Virus genome (UHGV): UHGV-1845973
Reading direction: 5' to 3' (one strand)
Source of the DNA: a virus
DNA: 21,770 nucleotides
The position numbers and the translations under genes are program-made. The notes under the pieces were generated by a model, which did not search any database, had not been told where the DNA came from, and saw nothing but the letters and a program-made list of their open reading frames with translations. Shown one piece after another: positions 13 to 12,262 of this stretch (the stretch's first letter is position 1; the number at the start of each line of letters is the position of its first letter).

Positions 13-969
13 TTAACCGATTGCTTTCAGGCCATGAACAAGAGCAAGTTGCGGGTCATCCGCCACGAAGAAACGGTCATCACGAATATTAACTTGCTCG
101 CGAATTGCATCTGCCACCAGCGGTGCGCCACCACCGATCACCATGACATGCGTATATCCTTTAAAGTCGCCAATCACATCAAGAACGCGGGTACGCAGAC
201 GGTCAATGCTTGCGGCAATGGCCTTTTTCACATCACCAATCGCTGATGGGTCATTGATATTGTCGTTCAGATAATCTTCATCGTGGCGGTTAATAATGAG
301 CTGATCAACATTGTAATTGGACGTTTCGGTATTGGCTCTGGCAAGTGCTTGCCTTACTTCCCTGGTAACCAGAGAGACGCCAAGATTCGAATCGCCAAAA
401 ACACGGGAAACTGCCGTCATTTGCCCGGCGACCATTGAAACATCAAGGGTAGTTCCACCCAAATCGACGATAAGAACAGAATGGGCAGGGTTCAGATTGT
501 CGCACAGGCCAATTCCTGCCGGAATAGACTCCGGTCGTACCGTAACTTTCTTAATCGTGAACACATTGCCTTTATTCAACGTGACGGGGCGCATAAGACT
601 GGATTTCTTGCGCTCGATGTTATCGAGATTGTATTGCGCGTCGTCGTCGTAAAACTCCGCCAGAGGCAGCGTGACCACAATTTCTACTTCCTGCGGCTCA
701 ATGCCACTTGTCAGCAGGGCATGGTGAACAGCCAGGACGTTAAGCGGGCTGTATTGCCATTCCACGTTATTCGTCGGCAGAACATCTGGCGAGATCAAAT
801 CATACGAATACTTTTCGTCGTCAATGACATAGTTAAACGGCTTGCCAGCACAAAATGTTGCTGACCATCCGCGCTTAAAGCTGTTAGGGCTGATGTGAGT
901 GCGAGTTTCCCCGTCGTGCTCCCACAGCATTTTGATATTGGTTGAACCATCATCGATAAAAATGCGCAT
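13..969 (-). CDS. parM: ParM/StbA-family actin-like plasmid segregation ATPase (type II partition)
   Basis: N-terminus MRIFIDDGSTNIK... and C-terminus ...LVHGLKAIG match the ParM family as I recall it (R1 ParM begins MLVFIDDGSTNIK). ATG at 969 is preferred over the GTG at 993 used by the ORF track because GGAG lies 7 nt upstream of it. Stop TAA at 15..13. Confidence 0.85.
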   Translation of the reverse strand: MRIFIDDGSTNIKMLWEHDGETRTHISPNSFKRGWSATFCAGKPFNYVIDDEKYSYDLISPDVLPTNNVEWQYSPLNVLAVHHALLTSGIEPQEVEIVVTLPLAEFYDDDAQYNLDNIERKKSSLMRPVTLNKGNVFTIKKVTVRPESIPAGIGLCDNLNPAHSVLIVDLGGTTLDVSMVAGQMTAVSRVFGDSNLGVSLVTREVRQALARANTETSNYNVDQLIINRHDEDYLNDNINDPSAIGDVKKAIAASIDRLRTRVLDVIGDFKGYTHVMVIGGGAPLVADAIREQVNIRDDRFFVADDPQLALVHGLKAIG

Positions 970-993
970 CTTCTTGCTCCACTTCTGAGACAC

Positions 994-1190
994 ATTTGAG
1001 AATCAAAATGCAATTTTAAAAGAGAAGCACCCAAAAATCCACACCAAAAGAGATAATAAAGAGTGATTATTGAGTTCATTTTGAGAATATCTTAATCACC
1101 CAATGAATGATGGTCTGACAGTGAGATTTATTTGAGGATGAATTGAGAATACAAAAATATTCCGAAATTTTACTCTCAGTTTGAATGACG
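994..1190. repeat. Candidate parC-like centromere/promoter region upstream of parM with TTGAGAAT-like repeats
   Basis: AT-rich intergenic region between divergent parM and the PAAR gene. TTGAGAAT at 996, 1081 and 1143; related 8-mers at 1070 (ttgagttc), 1121 (gtgagatt) and 1132 (ttgaggat). Two clusters show exact 11-bp spacing (1070/1081 and 1121/1132/1143), as in the 11-bp iterons of R1 parC. Confidence 0.4.
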
Positions 1191-1235
1191 AAATAACAAA
1201 GTGATGACAATAGGAGGATAACCAGGAGGTGAAGA

Positions 1236-1520
1236 ATGAGCGCAATAGCCACCAGCGACACCCTTTGTTCTGGTCACGGAGGATTTCCGCCGCGACTGGT
1301 AGCTGAAACTGTTCCCTGGTTCACCGTTAACGGTAAGCCAATTGTTGTAGATGGTGCCATGTTTCCCAGTCACACTGACGGTAACAGTGCACATCCAGGG
1401 GCAGCTGTATCGACGCGAGTATGGTTTTCGATAGGTGGAAAGGGAGTTGTCTGTGTAGGCGATCCGCTTTCTTGTGGTTCTGTTATCGCCAACGGCGAGG
1501 ATATTTTTCAGGTTGCATAA
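1236..1520 (+). CDS. PAAR-domain protein (spike-tip sharpening protein)
   Basis: 94 aa. Contains the three PAAR-type motifs: SDTLCSGHGG, FTVNGKPIVVDG and VGDPLSCGSVIANGEDIF. Strong RBS AGGAGG 7 nt upstream of the ATG. Confidence 0.7.
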   Translation: MSAIATSDTLCSGHGGFPPRLVAETVPWFTVNGKPIVVDGAMFPSHTDGNSAHPGAAVSTRVWFSIGGKGVVCVGDPLSCGSVIANGEDIFQVA

Positions 1521-2326
1521 TGCTTGATTCAATAGGTGAAGTTAAAGCCTTCAAAATTCTGTCAGATGCCGGTATCTCTACACCAGAATCTATAACCATA
1601 AGCCGGGCAGCGTCTGTAAAAGCCTCATCACTCGCCAGCGCCATACAGGGAATAGTTCACGCCGATAAAACCTATCCTGATTCTGTTTCGGCCTGGACTA
1701 CTCAATTGCTTGGCTTTTCTGAACAGCTAAATGAGGCCAGCAAAGCGTCTTCATTACTGGCTGATTCTCTTTCCCCATACACCAAGCCATCAGAGCTGTT
1801 ACAGATGAAGATTGGCTGGGAATGCTACGTAAAAGGTAACGAGCTGACCCCCATACCTGCTTTCGCCCTTGTTGAGGGGATGGGGAATGTTTCCATTCCG
1901 CAATCTCTAACGGACGCATTGACGGCGCTAAAACTTGATGCTCTGAAAACCGCCATGAACGCCATTAACGCAAAAATAGAAGCTGCCGGAAGTGCTGGTG
2001 GTGGTGATAGCAATGGTGGACAGGGTGGTACTGGGGGCGCTCAGGCTCCAGTCATTACTCAGGATGAAATTGATGCTTTACGGGAAGCAGTGACAGCCGC
2101 CGAAGTTTTACTCTCCGAAATTAACTCAGCAAGTGAGAGTGTCGTAGCCCTTACAGGTCGCATTAAAACGTCAACCACTCAGGCAACCAAAGGTTTAGAA
2201 AACGCTGTCGCCATCACGTTAACTGGTTCTCTACTGGATGATGCAGTAATGAGTCCGGCAATCAGTTTAATCATGCCACAAGGCGTTATCGATGCGCTCC
2301 AAAAGAACACCAAAAAGGAACAATAG
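1520..2326 (+). CDS. Hypothetical protein, translationally coupled to the PAAR gene
   Basis: ATG at 1520 overlaps the PAAR stop (TAATG). 268 aa with a Gly-rich linker (AAGSAGGGDSNGGQGGTGGAQAP) separating an N-terminal ~160-aa part from a C-terminal ~90-aa part. No motif recognised. The ORF track start at 1421 overlaps the PAAR gene and is unlikely. Confidence 0.55.
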   Translation: MLDSIGEVKAFKILSDAGISTPESITISRAASVKASSLASAIQGIVHADKTYPDSVSAWTTQLLGFSEQLNEASKASSLLADSLSPYTKPSELLQMKIGWECYVKGNELTPIPAFALVEGMGNVSIPQSLTDALTALKLDALKTAMNAINAKIEAAGSAGGGDSNGGQGGTGGAQAPVITQDEIDALREAVTAAEVLLSEINSASESVVALTGRIKTSTTQATKGLENAVAITLTGSLLDDAVMSPAISLIMPQGVIDALQKNTKKEQ

Positions 2327-2381
2327 CAACACCACTTAGGAACACAAAAGGATGTGAATTGGTACATGTTTAACACCAAAA

Positions 2382-2855
2382 ATGAACCTGAAGAGGATGG
2401 TTTTGAAAAAGATAATTTTGATTGTAATTGCGCTTTTAGCCATTTCTGGAATTTACCGAACAACGACGGCAGTTATCGAACACATCAGGTATGTCCGATC
2501 GCTTGAAGACTCAAAATCACAACTGGAAAGCACGAACAACACGCTTTCTACCGCATTACAGTTAAGTGAGAACGCTCGCTCAGCCATGCTGACCGAAAAC
2601 GAAAGAATTAAAGCACTGGAAAAGGAGTACCAGCGCAAAACAGCAGAACTGAATGCCAACCTAATCAAACAACGAGAGGAAAGCCAGAATGAAATCACTC
2701 GCCTTGAAAATGCGTTACGCCGTGCTGGGATTAACGATGTGCGTGTGCCTGATGACGTTATCAGGATGCAGCGGGAACGGGCAAAAGCCATCAACCAGCG
2801 TGCCAGTGAAAATTACCGTAGAAGCCACCAGCAAGCCGCAGGCAAATCTGATTGA
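2382..2855 (+). CDS. Rz-like i-spanin (type II inner-membrane protein with coiled-coil periplasmic domain)
   Basis: N-terminal basic stretch followed by one hydrophobic TM segment (IILIVIALLAISGIY), then a long charged helical region rich in E/R/K/Q/L. A lipoprotein gene is embedded in the +1 frame, which is the spanin hallmark. The alternative start at 2397 is not excluded. Confidence 0.6.
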   Translation: MNLKRMVLKKIILIVIALLAISGIYRTTTAVIEHIRYVRSLEDSKSQLESTNNTLSTALQLSENARSAMLTENERIKALEKEYQRKTAELNANLIKQREESQNEITRLENALRRAGINDVRVPDDVIRMQRERAKAINQRASENYRRSHQQAAGKSD

Positions 2856-3021
2856 TTACTCCCCTTGTTTAGTGCCAGAGGACACGCCAGTGCTGTTAAA
2901 CAAGTATCCGACATACGCTGAACAGTTATTCAGCACGATCGACGAATGCAACCAACGAAACGCACTGAATAACCAAAAAAACAGGGAGATTTGGGAAGGG
3001 AAGGGGGATCAAGGCTCCTGA
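2689..3021 (+). CDS. Rz1-like o-spanin (outer-membrane lipoprotein), starts inside the Rz gene in another frame
   Basis: Signal peptide with lipobox: MKSLALKMRYAVLGLTMCVCLMTLSG|C. Mature part is Pro/Thr/Ser-rich. RBS GAGAGGA 8 nt upstream of the ATG. It begins within Rz and extends 166 nt beyond the Rz stop. Confidence 0.55.
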   Translation: MKSLALKMRYAVLGLTMCVCLMTLSGCSGNGQKPSTSVPVKITVEATSKPQANLIDYSPCLVPEDTPVLLNKYPTYAEQLFSTIDECNQRNALNNQKNREIWEGKGDQGS

Positions 3022-3467
3022 AGCCAGATGTCCTGGCTGTCAGCTTCTTCGAAACCGTGACAGACGTTAAAGTCACTCAAGCGATACTGACGCTGACGGC
3101 CTCTATTTCGCTCATGCCAATGCATGTATCCACCAGCAAATGCCAGCGGACAATCACTATAGTCTATGTAACCAATACCATTCCCCAAACGTGCTTCGCG
3201 CGCACCGGCTTTCCAGGACAGTAGAAAAGAGTCACGATCCGCCAGCATAACAACAAAATCGTCCGGATCTCCGATACAGTGAAGAATACCTGCCTTACAT
3301 AACTGCTTGAGCGCTTTGGGCTGGCTCAGGATGTCTTCTCCGTAATACTGAAAACAATCATCAACAACAGCGGGATAGCCTGCCGGGGGATTCAGGCTGG
3401 TTGGTATAGCTGACGCGATCGCCAGCATTAAGCGATATTGTGTTTTTGATGGGTTAACGTGACTCAT
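3009..3467 (-). CDS. Hypothetical protein (downstream gene of an unknown two-gene module)
   Basis: 152-aa ORF with ATG start, 16 nt after the stop of the upstream ORF on the same strand. Its 3-prime end overlaps the convergent Rz1 end by 13 nt. No motif recognised with confidence. Confidence 0.5.
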   Translation of the reverse strand: MSHVNPSKTQYRLMLAIASAIPTSLNPPAGYPAVVDDCFQYYGEDILSQPKALKQLCKAGILHCIGDPDDFVVMLADRDSFLLSWKAGAREARLGNGIGYIDYSDCPLAFAGGYMHWHERNRGRQRQYRLSDFNVCHGFEEADSQDIWLQEP

Positions 3468-3483
3468 TTTGTCCCTTGTTTAC

Positions 3484-3918
3484 TCATTGTCGCCATGCAT
3501 TTTTTAACTCAGGAATATCTGCCATTTCAATTAACTTGCGAAGTCCAGCACTGACTTTCCCATTGCCAACCATAGCAAGCCAATCTCTTACAGCTTTCGG
3601 CATGTAGAGCGTTGCAGTTACCGGCTCTTCAACCCTGGCAGGACATCCGCATACAGGCCATTTAATTGACTCCATAACTTCGGATGCCGGGGTGAGGGCG
3701 GGGACATTGAGTATATCTCTACCAGAAAACTGGATAACGATCCGTTCAGCGAGCGAGAGTATCTCACTTTCGGCAAGAATTGATGCCAACTGCGCCTCAA
3801 CAAGAAAGCGACTTGTTGTGTTCAGAGAGTGGCTCTTAGCGCCATTTTTATACGAAACAAAGATTCGATACGCCATAACTCTAATGATTTGTGTTAGAAA
3901 ACTAAAATTAAACCACAT
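3484..3918 (-). CDS. Hypothetical protein with a C-terminal segment resembling a ribbon-helix-helix DNA-binding motif (upstream gene of the module)
   Basis: ORF open from ATG 3918; an alternative ATG at 3876 would give MAYRIFVSY... (131 aa). C-terminal segment TATLYMPKAVRDWLAMVGNGKVSAGLRKLIEMA fits a beta-strand/helix/G-x-G turn/helix pattern. Neither start has a convincing RBS. Confidence 0.5.
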   Translation of the reverse strand: MWFNFSFLTQIIRVMAYRIFVSYKNGAKSHSLNTTSRFLVEAQLASILAESEILSLAERIVIQFSGRDILNVPALTPASEVMESIKWPVCGCPARVEEPVTATLYMPKAVRDWLAMVGNGKVSAGLRKLIEMADIPELKNAWRQ

Positions 3919-4034
3919 AACAACATGTGTGTTAATAGATTTTATTTTACTAAACCTATTGACTAAATCACAAAGTAGGTATTGTTAGTCCGTCAAAAGA
4001 ACCTTCACGCCGCGCCCGAATTTAGGGCTTAACC

Positions 4035-5732
4035 GTGAATAAAAACATTCAGCCAGCTCGTGATCGCGAGCGCGAGATTATGAATCGGGCGGCAAGCGTC
4101 ATGGCTATGACCGTCGATCCGACCACCGATGCAGCAGGCAACATGATTGCTGACCAGGCAGTAATGATGGAAAACCTGGATAAAGCAATCCAGAAAGTGC
4201 CTATGTTTGAAGGCGTAAATCCAGAGGTCGCTCGTCAGATCACTGGTGGGTGGGCTATGTCTCTGCATGAGTATAAACGTCAACATGGTCATTACCCGGC
4301 AAGTGACATCCTGGCGAACGCACACATGGCTCTTGAACGCCTAATGACTGAATGTGCCAGTGATACCCACGAAGGCACGGGTAAGGCAATGTTTGAGTCT
4401 GTCGCGCAATCAATGCGTAGCTCTGACGGCGTAATGAAAGTTGCTCAATATGCTGCTCTAATTCTGCCTGCCTCTCTGGGCGCTGCTACCAGTGATGCCT
4501 GTACTTTTGTTCCTTGTGATCGTGACGAGTCAAATATTTATGAACTGGTCAACGTAGCAGGCACAAAATTCGGCACCTTCAAACAAGGTGACGAACTGAA
4601 TATGCAGTCAGCTGGTGTTTATTCTCAAATGAAGCGCCTGTATACCCTTTCCACTAAAGGGGATGGCAGCACCAAAACCTTCCAGTTCGACATCCAAAAT
4701 TTTGAGGGACAATCCTGCCCGCTTCGCGCTGGTTATAGCAAACTGCTGATCAACCGCAAACCGTCCAAAGTTGACGACGGCGATGGCAACCTTTATTTCA
4801 ATGCTAAAGACAGCAAAGGTAAAGCTTTCTCAGCGACTGCCAAAGTCGCCTATGACACTGGTGTCATTGACATTACATTTACCCAGGCTCCGCCAGAAGG
4901 TACTGAAATTGCTGTTCAGGTCGAAATTAACATCGAGCGCAATCCAAGCCTGATTCCTGTGATCAACCAGGCTATGCGTAAGTACGAAGTTCGTCCGTCC
5001 CAGTACGTAATTGCTTCCGAACACACGGTAATGTCCGCATCCGATTTAAGCCGTGAGCACGGCCTTGAATTAGCGGCACTTCAGTTCTCCGCGATGCGTA
5101 ACTGGATCTCCCATGAAACCGACATCATGCGTCTGCGCACCCTGGTATTCCATACCGTTTATGGTCGTGAATTTGATGTGGCTCTGCCGGAAGCTCAAAA
5201 CTATGAGTCCTGGGTCGGCCTCCTGCGTCACGTAGTAAACGCTCTGTCTCAAGAAATGGCAAATCGTACCCTGACAACGGGTATTCGTGGCGGCTTTGCT
5301 GGTGGTGACGCCGCGAACTTCCTGCGCTCTCTGCCTCCACAGCACTTCCAGATCGCACCAGGTTACGTTCAGTCGCCGTATGTACAGTACATCGGCACCC
5401 TGTTTGGCACGATTCGTATTTACGAAGTGCCGCAACCTGTCTGTGAGCAATTCCAGGCACAGGGATATGACTTCGGGCTGGATGACATCTTCTTCTATGG
5501 GCGTGGCGAAGGCATCGGTAAAGCCGGTCTGATTGCTGGTGATGCAGTCCCAGCAATCCCTTACGTGCACGAAACCAATCCGTCTCTCGTTAACCGTACC
5601 ACTCTCTGGGGCAGTGCCATCAACGAAGTACATCCTCGCAACGGTGAAAACTACTTCACCCGCCTGCGTCTGACTCGCGCCAAAGAAGGTGCTATCGACA
5701 TGCTGACAGGCAAGGTTAACGAAAAAAAGTGA
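4035..5732 (+). CDS. Putative major capsid protein precursor (large head protein)
   Basis: 565-aa ORF with GTG start, the first gene of the long + strand structural operon, immediately upstream of an Ig-like protein gene and the sheath gene. The functional call rests on position and size only. Confidence 0.55.
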   Translation: MNKNIQPARDREREIMNRAASVMAMTVDPTTDAAGNMIADQAVMMENLDKAIQKVPMFEGVNPEVARQITGGWAMSLHEYKRQHGHYPASDILANAHMALERLMTECASDTHEGTGKAMFESVAQSMRSSDGVMKVAQYAALILPASLGAATSDACTFVPCDRDESNIYELVNVAGTKFGTFKQGDELNMQSAGVYSQMKRLYTLSTKGDGSTKTFQFDIQNFEGQSCPLRAGYSKLLINRKPSKVDDGDGNLYFNAKDSKGKAFSATAKVAYDTGVIDITFTQAPPEGTEIAVQVEINIERNPSLIPVINQAMRKYEVRPSQYVIASEHTVMSASDLSREHGLELAALQFSAMRNWISHETDIMRLRTLVFHTVYGREFDVALPEAQNYESWVGLLRHVVNALSQEMANRTLTTGIRGGFAGGDAANFLRSLPPQHFQIAPGYVQSPYVQYIGTLFGTIRIYEVPQPVCEQFQAQGYDFGLDDIFFYGRGEGIGKAGLIAGDAVPAIPYVHETNPSLVNRTTLWGSAINEVHPRNGENYFTRLRLTRAKEGAIDMLTGKVNEKK

Positions 5733-11363: not shown

Positions 11364-12224
11364 TTAATCTGTTGGTTTAAGTTTCGGATTCCGAGAGTGA
11401 ACGATAATGAAGTTTTCACGACCTTGCTTTTCAATGGTGCAATCGAGATAACCTATTGTTTTTAACTGGTCTATAGCTTTTTTTATCGTTCTGTTTTGCT
11501 CACTTACCGATGACATCAAGGCTAATCTTTCACGTATTCTGGCAAATGAAATAGGTATTGGACGTGCCGGGAGGCTTTCTATAAAGGTATATATGGCCTG
11601 GGCTGCTTCTTTTTTAGGTAAAGCGCGAAGTGCGTGTTGCTGTAGAAGCACCCGATAGTCTAGCTGGAAGATTTCCCATAACTTGGAATCAGCCTCCAGT
11701 TCAACGACATCTGTTTCAAAGTCAAAATATCCCGTTTTAAGCAGGCCAGTATTGTAGCTTCCACGAGCACTTTTCCCTCTTTTGAATGAGATGCCTTTGT
11801 TGCGTAACCGACCTAAAGAATCGTGGATCGTGTTTCTTAATTTCCCATCAAGTCGCTTAGATGGAAATCCGCACGCCTTTGCAAATTCTTGAAAAGAAAG
11901 GCGAATTGTATTCGATGATAAGCCATACTTGCTAAATGAGTAGATTACCCCAATCCAGACTTTGAAATCAGTATCCATGTCCAAGCGAGGGCCAGTGATC
12001 TTGATGTTGTCGTAGCCTTCTGCTTGAGCTATTTCCAATTTGGAAAAAACAGATGATGCATCTATCTCGTTGTTTTCACCCTGTTTTTTAGTTGGTTTAG
12101 GGACGAAAACACCAAGCCGCATAAGTGCGACAGGTTGAACAGTATTGTTCGAATTAACTGTTAATTCTTTAGCCTTGCTTTCAATGTCAGCATAAAGAAT
12201 ATCAGAGATAAATGACTTATCCAT
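11364..12224 (-). CDS. repA: RepA replication initiator, P1 / IncY-type iteron plasmid family
   Basis: 286 aa beginning MDKSFISDILYADIESKAKELTVNSN..., which I recognise as P1 RepA-like, and flanked on both sides by P1-type 19-bp iterons. ATG at 12224; the ORF track adds one upstream TTG codon. Confidence 0.9.
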   Translation of the reverse strand: MDKSFISDILYADIESKAKELTVNSNNTVQPVALMRLGVFVPKPTKKQGENNEIDASSVFSKLEIAQAEGYDNIKITGPRLDMDTDFKVWIGVIYSFSKYGLSSNTIRLSFQEFAKACGFPSKRLDGKLRNTIHDSLGRLRNKGISFKRGKSARGSYNTGLLKTGYFDFETDVVELEADSKLWEIFQLDYRVLLQQHALRALPKKEAAQAIYTFIESLPARPIPISFARIRERLALMSSVSEQNRTIKKAIDQLKTIGYLDCTIEKQGRENFIIVHSRNPKLKPTD

Positions 12225-12262
12225 CAATAAGTTACCGTCATGTTGTGAATAAAGTTTACGAC

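Follow-up and report, generated by a model that had tools for sequence, protein, structure and literature searches.

A pair of overlapping genes was analysed in the 21,770-nt virus sequence UHGV-1845973, the whole of which is referred to here as the window. Both genes are on the + strand. The first (2382..2855) encodes 157 aa from ATG 2382, and the second (2689..3021) encodes a 110-aa prolipoprotein in the +1 frame relative to the first. These two open reading frames (ORFs) lie just where a preliminary description of the window had put them. As judged from sequence comparison and structure prediction, the pair is very probably an overlapped two-component spanin of a D6-like, P1-related phage-plasmid, and the counterpart of PpfA/Mlp of phage P1. 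Here the first gene is called the i-spanin gene, on the grounds of its ORF, its PHROG matches and its synteny with P1 ppfA, and the second the o-spanin gene, on the grounds of its ORF, a match to phrog_456 and a profile comparison with P1 Mlp.

The window is 100% identical over its full length to the Escherichia coli B2C plasmid pB2C_96 (NZ_CP035876.1, 96 kb, human stool), and the region of the pair shares 98.9% identity with the P1-related plasmid prophage known as Escherichia phage D6. pB2C_96 is a phage-plasmid related to phage D6. The sequence is present in 101 of 5,426 complete E. coli genomes (~2%), and it is plasmid-borne, on phage-plasmids, in every case.

An anchored helical protein and an overlapping lipoprotein gene

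Three start codons can be considered for the i-spanin: ATG 2382 (157 aa), ATG 2397 as used in RefSeq (WP_000243176.1, 152 aa), and TTG 2403 as used for D6 orf55 (150 aa). With each of them, a short basic cytoplasmic tail is followed by a membrane segment. Only one hydrophobic segment is found in the protein, at residues 6-24 (Kyte-Doolittle 19-residue mean of 2.48), and the N-terminus before it is rich in Lys and Arg. The predicted transmembrane segment at about residues 8-25 (2403..2456, LKKIILIVIALLAISGIY) is part of a helix spanning residues 2-114 in the AlphaFold2 (AF2) model. This implies a type II inner-membrane protein with a predicted N-in/C-out topology. The remainder has many charged residues, Gln and Ala, with no Cys and one Pro.

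The AF2 model of the i-spanin, with a mean predicted local distance difference test score (pLDDT) of 87, consists of a helix at 2-114, a break at 115-123 and another helix at 124-153. Block means of pLDDT are 88-96 for residues 11-110 and 82 for residues 111-120. Periplasmic helix 1 (residues 26-114, 2457..2723) shows a heptad-like hydrophobic periodicity, and the windows of heptad contrast fall within residues 33-92. The non-helical hinge (residues 115-123, AGINDVRVP, 2724..2750) contains G116 and P123, which are invariant with P1 included, and P123 is the sole fully invariant column across 21 family representatives. Periplasmic helix 2 (residues 124-153, 2751..2840) carries the conserved family motif DDVIRMQRERAKAIN. 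As modelled, this plan of anchor, helix, hinge and helix is typical of i-spanins. The single hydrophobic segment, the helical model and the heptad periodicity bear out the preliminary description, which had spoken of an N-terminal transmembrane segment plus a coiled coil.

A Shine-Dalgarno-like GAGAGG (2674..2679), read from the sequence, lies 9 nt before the o-spanin ATG 2689. Residues 1-26 (2689..2766, MKSLALKMRYAVLGLTMCVCLMTLSG) form a predicted lipoprotein signal peptide with a basic N-region and a hydrophobic core, modelled as a helix at 2-25. It ends in the lipobox L24-S25-G26-C27 (2758..2769, with the Cys27 codon at 2767-2769), and LSGC is invariant in seven lineages including P1. Predicted cleavage gives MKSLALKMRYAVLGLTMCVCLMTLSG/CSG, where the slash marks the cleavage point, so that the +2 residue is Ser and not the Asp of Lol avoidance. 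This implies that the lipoprotein would be sorted to the outer membrane.

The mature o-spanin (84 aa, 2767..3018) contains 8.3% Pro. It is predicted to have a Pro-containing disordered N-terminal part, extending to about residue 60, and a helical C-terminal part (66-102). In the AF2 model, pLDDT is below 50 at residues 26-48, helices are at 66-72 and 74-102, and block means are 86-89 over residues 61-100. There are two periplasmic cysteines, Cys60 (2866-2868) and Cys87 (2947-2949). Both are invariant in D6-type sequences, and C60 is also aligned in P1. With none in the i-spanin and two in the mature o-spanin, the pair follows the cysteine pattern of spanins. At least one periplasmic cysteine, which would serve homotypic disulfide linkage, occurs in either subunit in 507 of 528 known pairs, and the combination of a Cys-free i-spanin with a two-Cys o-spanin is the commonest among 526 pairs tabulated by cysteine number (PMC6139136).

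Constraint on the overlapping frames

The two genes share 167 nt (2689..2855), where both frames are constrained, and the o-spanin gene continues for 166 nt past the i-spanin stop (2856..3021), this overhang being single-coding except for its last 13 nt. The length of the overhang had been given correctly in the preliminary description, which also called the architecture embedded. By the published definition, it is overlapped instead (PMC6139136). The same description took 110 aa to be unusually long for an o-spanin. Neither this length nor the 84 aa of the mature part is exceptional for the overlapped class, as P1 Mlp has 110 aa and Bcep1 gp26 has 106 aa.

We considered that only the first gene might be real and that the lipoprotein ORF might be an untranslated chance frame. 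The annotations would suit this, since the o-spanin gene is not annotated in RefSeq pB2C_96 and its D6 version, orf54, is annotated from GTG 2800 only (73 aa), losing the signal peptide and the lipobox. When the i-spanin gene was resampled with synonymous codons, the +1 frame stayed open across the overlap in 16% of the resamples. But it was open and also had a lipobox in only 1.3%, and the actual ORF has a Shine-Dalgarno sequence at the right distance. From the single sequence alone, a chance origin is only moderately unlikely, and the comparative data are decisive.

Loci of decreasing i-spanin identity were compared, namely L007 (82%), L004 (46%), L005 (43%), L016 (30%) and L019 (22%), together with phage P1 (L011). 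Each of the six carries a +1-frame ORF that has its own start codon, begins like a signal peptide and keeps the LSGC lipobox. The preliminary description had recognised a lipoprotein in this frame with the lipobox LSG/C, now placed at Cys27. Downstream, all the compared lineages share C-x-x-P-E, a Pro/aromatic motif (P-x-Y in most, P-E-F in L019) and an Asn-rich C-terminal stretch. The ORF, its ATG, LSGC and the C-terminal motifs PC-x-x-PE, YP-x-Y and N-x-x-N are kept in seven lineages including P1.

Selection was examined separately in the overhang and the overlap. In the overhang, dN/dS is 0.10 against L007 (pS 0.62, pN 0.12). Against L004 and L005, pS is saturated at about 1.0 with pN of 0.21-0.27. 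In the overlap, pS against L007 is only 0.15-0.16, low in both frames, compared with 0.39 in the unique part of the i-spanin gene and 0.62 in the overhang. Such depressed substitution is expected of dual coding. Because the frame is conserved and the overhang is under purifying selection, the second ORF is a real gene. The chance-frame explanation is effectively refuted by the comparative data and can be called extremely unlikely.

The overlap also accounts for a feature of the i-spanin. The nucleotides of the LSGC lipobox encode V126-I127-R128-M129 of the i-spanin as well. The lipobox codons of every D6-type lineage, TTA TC(A/C) GGA TGC, read V-I-R-M-Q in the i-spanin frame, and the P1 codons CTC AGC GGT TGC read T-Q-R-L-L. 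The lipobox codons for Gly and Cys dictate the near-invariant Arg followed by Met or Leu, since NGG is read as Arg and NTG as Met or Leu. The pair is a clean example of dual-coding constraint, as the invariant lipobox codons coincide with the most conserved i-spanin motif, V-I-R-M-Q.

The pair has been overlooked in annotation. In D6 it corresponds to orf55 and orf54, both 'hypothetical', and the i-spanin is labelled 'hypothetical protein' in RefSeq pB2C_96, as it is in all three annotated records inspected. The best PHROG matches of the two proteins are the 'unknown function' families phrog_17138 and phrog_17671, which cover C-terminal parts only (o-spanin residues 40-110, window 2800-3021; i-spanin residues 69-157, 2586-2855). 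The match to the o-spanin agrees with the D6 orf54 start at GTG 2800, about residue 38. Truncation keeps both the lipobox and the membrane anchor out of view, which is probably why the pair remains unannotated. In an E. coli O45:H2 phage-plasmid (L015, NZ_CP031917.1, 622-1089), the annotation splits the i-spanin into two short hypothetical proteins and flags the upfB homologue upstream of it as frameshifted, which suggests decay or sequencing errors in this copy. The literature on D6 spanins was searched, and no paper discussing them was found.

Spanin assignment, phage P1 and dispersed lysis genes

Two-component spanins disrupt the bacterial outer membrane when the infection ends. This functional class is said to have been defined in Summer 2007. 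Kongari 2018 also defines it, with embedded, overlapped or separated gene architectures (PMC6139136). The pair here has a single N-terminal membrane anchor, a two-segment helical periplasmic domain, a lipobox, and adjacent overlapping genes. A place in or next to a holin-endolysin cassette, which is usual for spanins but does not define them, is not found for this pair, and the examples of T4 and P1 show that spanins can do without it.

Family matches point in the same direction. The i-spanin matches the 'Rz-like spanin' families phrog_214 (7.6e-16) and phrog_89 (1.8e-7), and the o-spanin matches phrog_456 (4.3e-5), also 'Rz-like spanin', and phrog_30284 (6e-4). Of the family representatives scanned, 20 of 21 match phrog_214. 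For the P1 proteins, PpfA matches phrog_89 (5e-25) and Mlp matches phrog_30284 (6.5e-79), and PpfA shares with the window i-spanin the matches to both phrog_89 and phrog_214.

Phage P1 has the same gene order as the window, on the same strand: upfC (PAAR), upfB, i-spanin (ppfA) and o-spanin (mlp). The P1 genes overlap by 167 nt with an overhang of 166 nt, exactly the values in the window. P1 Mlp is annotated with 110 aa, the same as the window o-spanin, and P1 PpfA has 140 aa. The Mlp lipobox is also LSG/C, leaving CSG after cleavage, and its codon register relative to the R-[ML] motif of the i-spanin is that of the D6-type pairs. A profile of D6-type o-spanins aligns to P1 Mlp over 86 columns with an hhalign probability of 96% (E 3.8e-9), and tblastn finds the o-spanin similarity to Mlp only marginally (30% identity, E 0.3-0.8). 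SpaninDB (supplement, PMC6139136) lists P1 gp064/gp063 as an overlapped ('ovl') i-/o-spanin pair with the lipobox TLSG/C. Phage P7 has an arrangement identical to P1 PpfA/Mlp.

Because topology, PHROG matches, and homology and synteny with the SpaninDB-listed P1 ppfA/mlp all agree, we take the pair as a spanin, as the preliminary description did when it named the pair Rz/Rz1-like. The pair is the previously unannotated D6-type counterpart of P1 ppfA/mlp.

Two observations on the P1 proteins may be added. First, the i/o role assignment of Bednarek et al. (PMC9025707) is reversed relative to the sequences and SpaninDB, as PpfA (gp064) carries the membrane anchor and is the i-spanin, while Mlp (gp063) carries the lipobox and is the o-spanin. 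Second, the annotated Mlp start (L011 3908-4240) gives a 39-residue signal peptide, flagged in SpaninDB as 'too long signal sequence'. Alignment with D6-type o-spanins suggests that the true start may be the internal Met28 (MFASVFLLTLSG/C).

Several points weigh against the spanin assignment. A membrane anchor and a coiled coil were compared with PHROG profiles, and the match scores may be inflated by composition. For neither protein does a curated spanin model of Pfam or NCBIfam attain its cut-off: O_Spanin_T7 (PF17531) stays below threshold with 16.3 bits against a cut-off of 25, P2_Rz1 gives 12.9 bits against 27, matches to NCBIfam LysB (TIGR03495) and LysC (NF038368) are weak and sub-threshold, and Phage_lysis/Rz (PF03245) does not match the pair. 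By these scores, the pair lies outside the Pfam PF03245/PF17531 and NCBIfam LysB/LysC sequence families. When 1.84 billion representative proteins were searched exhaustively with a profile, only 22 clusters were returned, and all of these and the loci examined have a P1/D6-type phage-plasmid context, with none in an independent lysis cassette. The i-spanin resembles P1 PpfA weakly, over 33 C-terminal columns only (hhalign probability 31%, E 5e-4). The spanin role of P1 ppfA/mlp itself 'has not been verified experimentally' (Bednarek et al. 2022, PMC9025707). Finally, a late-promoter search was modelled on the P1 elements LPsit and LP23 as given in the P1 annotation. The P1-style late pattern, with a -22 box and a -10 element, finds one site only in D6.

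The preliminary description had noted that no holin or endolysin gene accompanies the pair in the window, and had proposed to look for them elsewhere in the genome. No holin or endolysin gene is annotated among the window genes, each of which was mapped to a D6 or pB2C_96 gene and checked for its annotation. The sole peptidoglycan-degrading annotation in the window is a Sit-like 'putative tail injection transglycosylase'. On pB2C_96, a CHAP hydrolase lies at 5.2-5.7 kb, LydA/LydB at 18.2-19.0 kb and the spanin pair at 41.7-42.4 kb, and D6 has the same layout. The LydA holin (phrog_1527, 2.3e-38) and the LydB antiholin (PF16084, 1e-24) are about 22.7 kb from the pair, and the CHAP/TIGR02594 hydrolase (PF05257, 2.7e-7) is about 36 kb away. 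The hydrolase (161 aa, L013 5223-5708 on pB2C_96, D6 orf16) has no membrane or signal-anchor-release (SAR) segment, and its best PHROG is phrog_1259 (7.9e-47), a baseplate hub/tail lysozyme family that it matches in the C-terminal part. It is probably the endolysin of D6-like phage-plasmids.

The term orphan, which the preliminary description had applied to the pair, is not appropriate, because the replicon carries the other lysis genes and dispersed lysis loci are a P1 trait. P1 is described as atypical, since its lysis genes are divided among several operons that are not linked to one another, and those for the spanins lie 'in yet another unlinked operon' (Bednarek et al. 2022, PMC9025707). 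Separation from the holin and the endolysin is the normal layout of the P1 family, and not a sign of a different role.

The same separation could otherwise be read as favouring an envelope-modifying or superinfection-exclusion module, in which a lipoprotein of the outer membrane, comparable to T5 Llp or phi80 Cor, and its inner-membrane partner would be expressed from the plasmid prophage and protect the lysogen instead of lysing it. Other facts lean the same way. The only promoters annotated directly upstream of P1 ppfA are predicted sigma-70 promoters, not late ones, spanin function in the P1 family is not experimentally proven (PMC9025707), and mlp and ppfA scored as non-essential in a CRISPR interference (CRISPRi) knock-down of P1 (PMC10695390). 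However, spanins are also expected to be non-essential in the laboratory (PMC9025707), and the P1 result is compatible with spanins under laboratory conditions. Several 'Rz-like spanin' PHROGs are matched along almost the whole of both window proteins. The +1 overlapped architecture, the helix-hinge-helix domain and the 0+2 cysteines are spanin hallmarks. A PADLOC scan gave no significant defence match, the sole one being a compositional match of 17 bits to the anchor and coiled-coil part of RmuC. To our knowledge, moreover, exclusion lipoproteins need no coiled-coil inner-membrane partner in an overlapping frame. We regard an exclusion module as quite unlikely.

Upstream of the pair, a PAAR protein gene (P1 upfC homologue, 1236-1520, +; D6 annotation, PAAR matches) is followed by a UpfB homologue gene (1520-2326, +; D6 annotation), which is separated from the pair by 55 nt. 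The order of PAAR, UpfB and i-spanin is kept in P1, L004, L005, L007 and L016. In L019, a 94-aa gene of PAAR-gene size, with no Pfam match on record, directly precedes the i-spanin gene. On the + strand of 1520-2382, no terminator-like or sigma-70-like site was found, and a sigma-70 and terminator scan of 900-4100 gave no promoter-like site on the + strand, with counts below those of shuffled sequence. With a gap of only 55 nt and no site resembling a promoter or a terminator in between, the pair probably shares a transcript with the PAAR and UpfB genes.

In the late-promoter search, a 17-nt motif, TGACNNAATNACAAAGT, was found on the + strand at 1186-1202, upstream of the PAAR gene, and at 3960-3976, upstream of the major capsid gene. 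The window and the complete D6 genome contain no other copy. The TGAC part of the motif agrees at 7 of 9 positions with the -22 box of P1 late promoters, which reads AAATGACTA in LPsit and AAGTGACTT in LP23. The motif could be a shared late regulatory site, although its pattern was derived from the same two sites.

The linkage to the genes for UpfB and for PAAR, the spike tip, raises the idea that the pair acts together with them in virion assembly or DNA injection, for instance by assisting the assembly of the tail tip at the membrane or remodelling the envelope at entry, with lysis not its main role. The order of PAAR, UpfB, i-spanin and o-spanin is conserved in P1, in D6-type and in more distant phage-plasmids, and upfB and the pair are not separated by any predicted terminator or promoter. 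Yet co-transcription with late structural genes is also what is expected of a lysis gene in a phage lacking a cassette, and the evidence from homology favours spanins. We know of no virion role for any Rz-like protein. A main role in the virion is very unlikely.

A broader possibility is expression of the pair while the phage persists as a plasmid prophage, or an envelope role beyond lysis, such as exclusion of incoming phages or remodelling during tail-tip delivery. It is conceived because of the constant linkage to PAAR and UpfB, the separation from holin and endolysin, and the predicted sigma-70 promoters of P1. It seems distinctly improbable, but if true, spanin-type membrane-bridging proteins would have a second biological role.

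Downstream of the pair are two convergent genes on the - strand, homologues of D6 orf53 (3009-3467, phrog_8101) and orf52 (3484-3918, phrog_7830), neither with a Pfam or PADLOC match. They stand where P1 has upfA, oriR, repA and parAB. The orf53 homologue overlaps the o-spanin gene tail-to-tail by 13 nt (3009-3021), and therefore there is no room for a terminator between the convergent units. A gene for a Rep3/RepB-type replication initiator (D6 orf42) is at 11364-12227 on the opposite (-) strand, with the tail-tube gene on one side and the pmgB/sit genes on the other. Unlike in P1, the module for plasmid maintenance therefore interrupts the tail gene block.

Proposed action and comparison with known spanins

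The mechanism of spanins is reportedly known from work on lambda Rz/Rz1 and T4 PseT.3/PseT.2 by Berry, Rajaure, Kongari, Young and co-workers. By analogy with lambda and T4, the spanin pair of the window could act as follows. First, the o-spanin, translated from its internal start in the +1 frame as a prolipoprotein, would be lipidated at Cys27 and Lol-sorted to the inner leaflet of the outer membrane, where it may form homodimers via disulfides. Second, the periplasmic domains of the i- and o-spanins would bind each other, and the complex would span the periplasm through the peptidoglycan mesh. Third, when the LydA holin fires, the unlinked endolysin, probably the CHAP/TIGR02594 hydrolase, would remove the murein. 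The freed complexes would then collapse and bring about fusion of the inner membrane with the outer one, by which lysis is completed.

The value of the finding is mainly for annotation. The spanins complete the lysis set of D6-like phage-plasmids, consisting of LydA/LydB, a CHAP-type hydrolase and the spanins, and the understanding of spanins and of lysis is unchanged by this pair.

Among known systems, the nearest is P1. Divergence from it is considerable, with 30% identity for the o-spanin and 20% for the i-spanin. The mature D6-type o-spanin has two periplasmic cysteines, whereas P1 Mlp has one. Downstream of the pair, P1 has upfA and the oriR/repA/par region, and the window has the two convergent genes. 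The endolysin partner also differs, being the SAR lysozyme Lyz in P1 and probably the CHAP/TIGR02594 hydrolase, which lacks a membrane segment, in the D6 type. Therefore the endolysin has probably been swapped, while LydA/LydB and the spanin lineage have been kept.

The prototype, lambda Rz/Rz1, is alike in combining a type II inner-membrane helix-linker-helix protein with a lipoprotein of the outer membrane that is read from the same DNA in the +1 frame, and in the presumed mechanism, in which a periplasm-spanning complex fuses the membranes after murein degradation. There are differences, however. Rz1 is fully embedded in Rz, short and without predicted helices, whereas the window o-spanin is overlapped, longer and has a C-terminus predicted to be helical. 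Rz has two periplasmic cysteines and the window i-spanin has none. The lambda pair ends the S-R-Rz/Rz1 cassette, whereas the window pair is outside any cassette, and the two pairs have no significant sequence similarity.

T4 likewise has its spanin genes apart from those for the holin (t) and the endolysin (e). The window pair resembles PseT.3/PseT.2 in the 0+2 cysteines, in a comparatively large o-spanin and in its C-terminal helix, predicted here by AF2. PseT.3 has no Cys and PseT.2 has two periplasmic ones, and PseT.2 is larger than lambda Rz1 with a predicted C-terminal helix (Kongari et al., PMC6139136). The T4 genes have the 'separated' architecture, and no sequence homology to the window pair was detected.

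In architecture, Bcep1 gp25/gp26 and P2 LysB/LysC come closer. Bcep1 gp25/gp26 are overlapped with a long o-spanin (the mature part of the 106-aa gp26 is 89 aa), and P2 LysB/LysC belong to the overlapped class too, with weak, sub-threshold NCBIfam matches to the window pair (12.9 vs 27 bits). The P2 and Bcep1 pairs sit in lysis cassettes, whereas the window pair does not.

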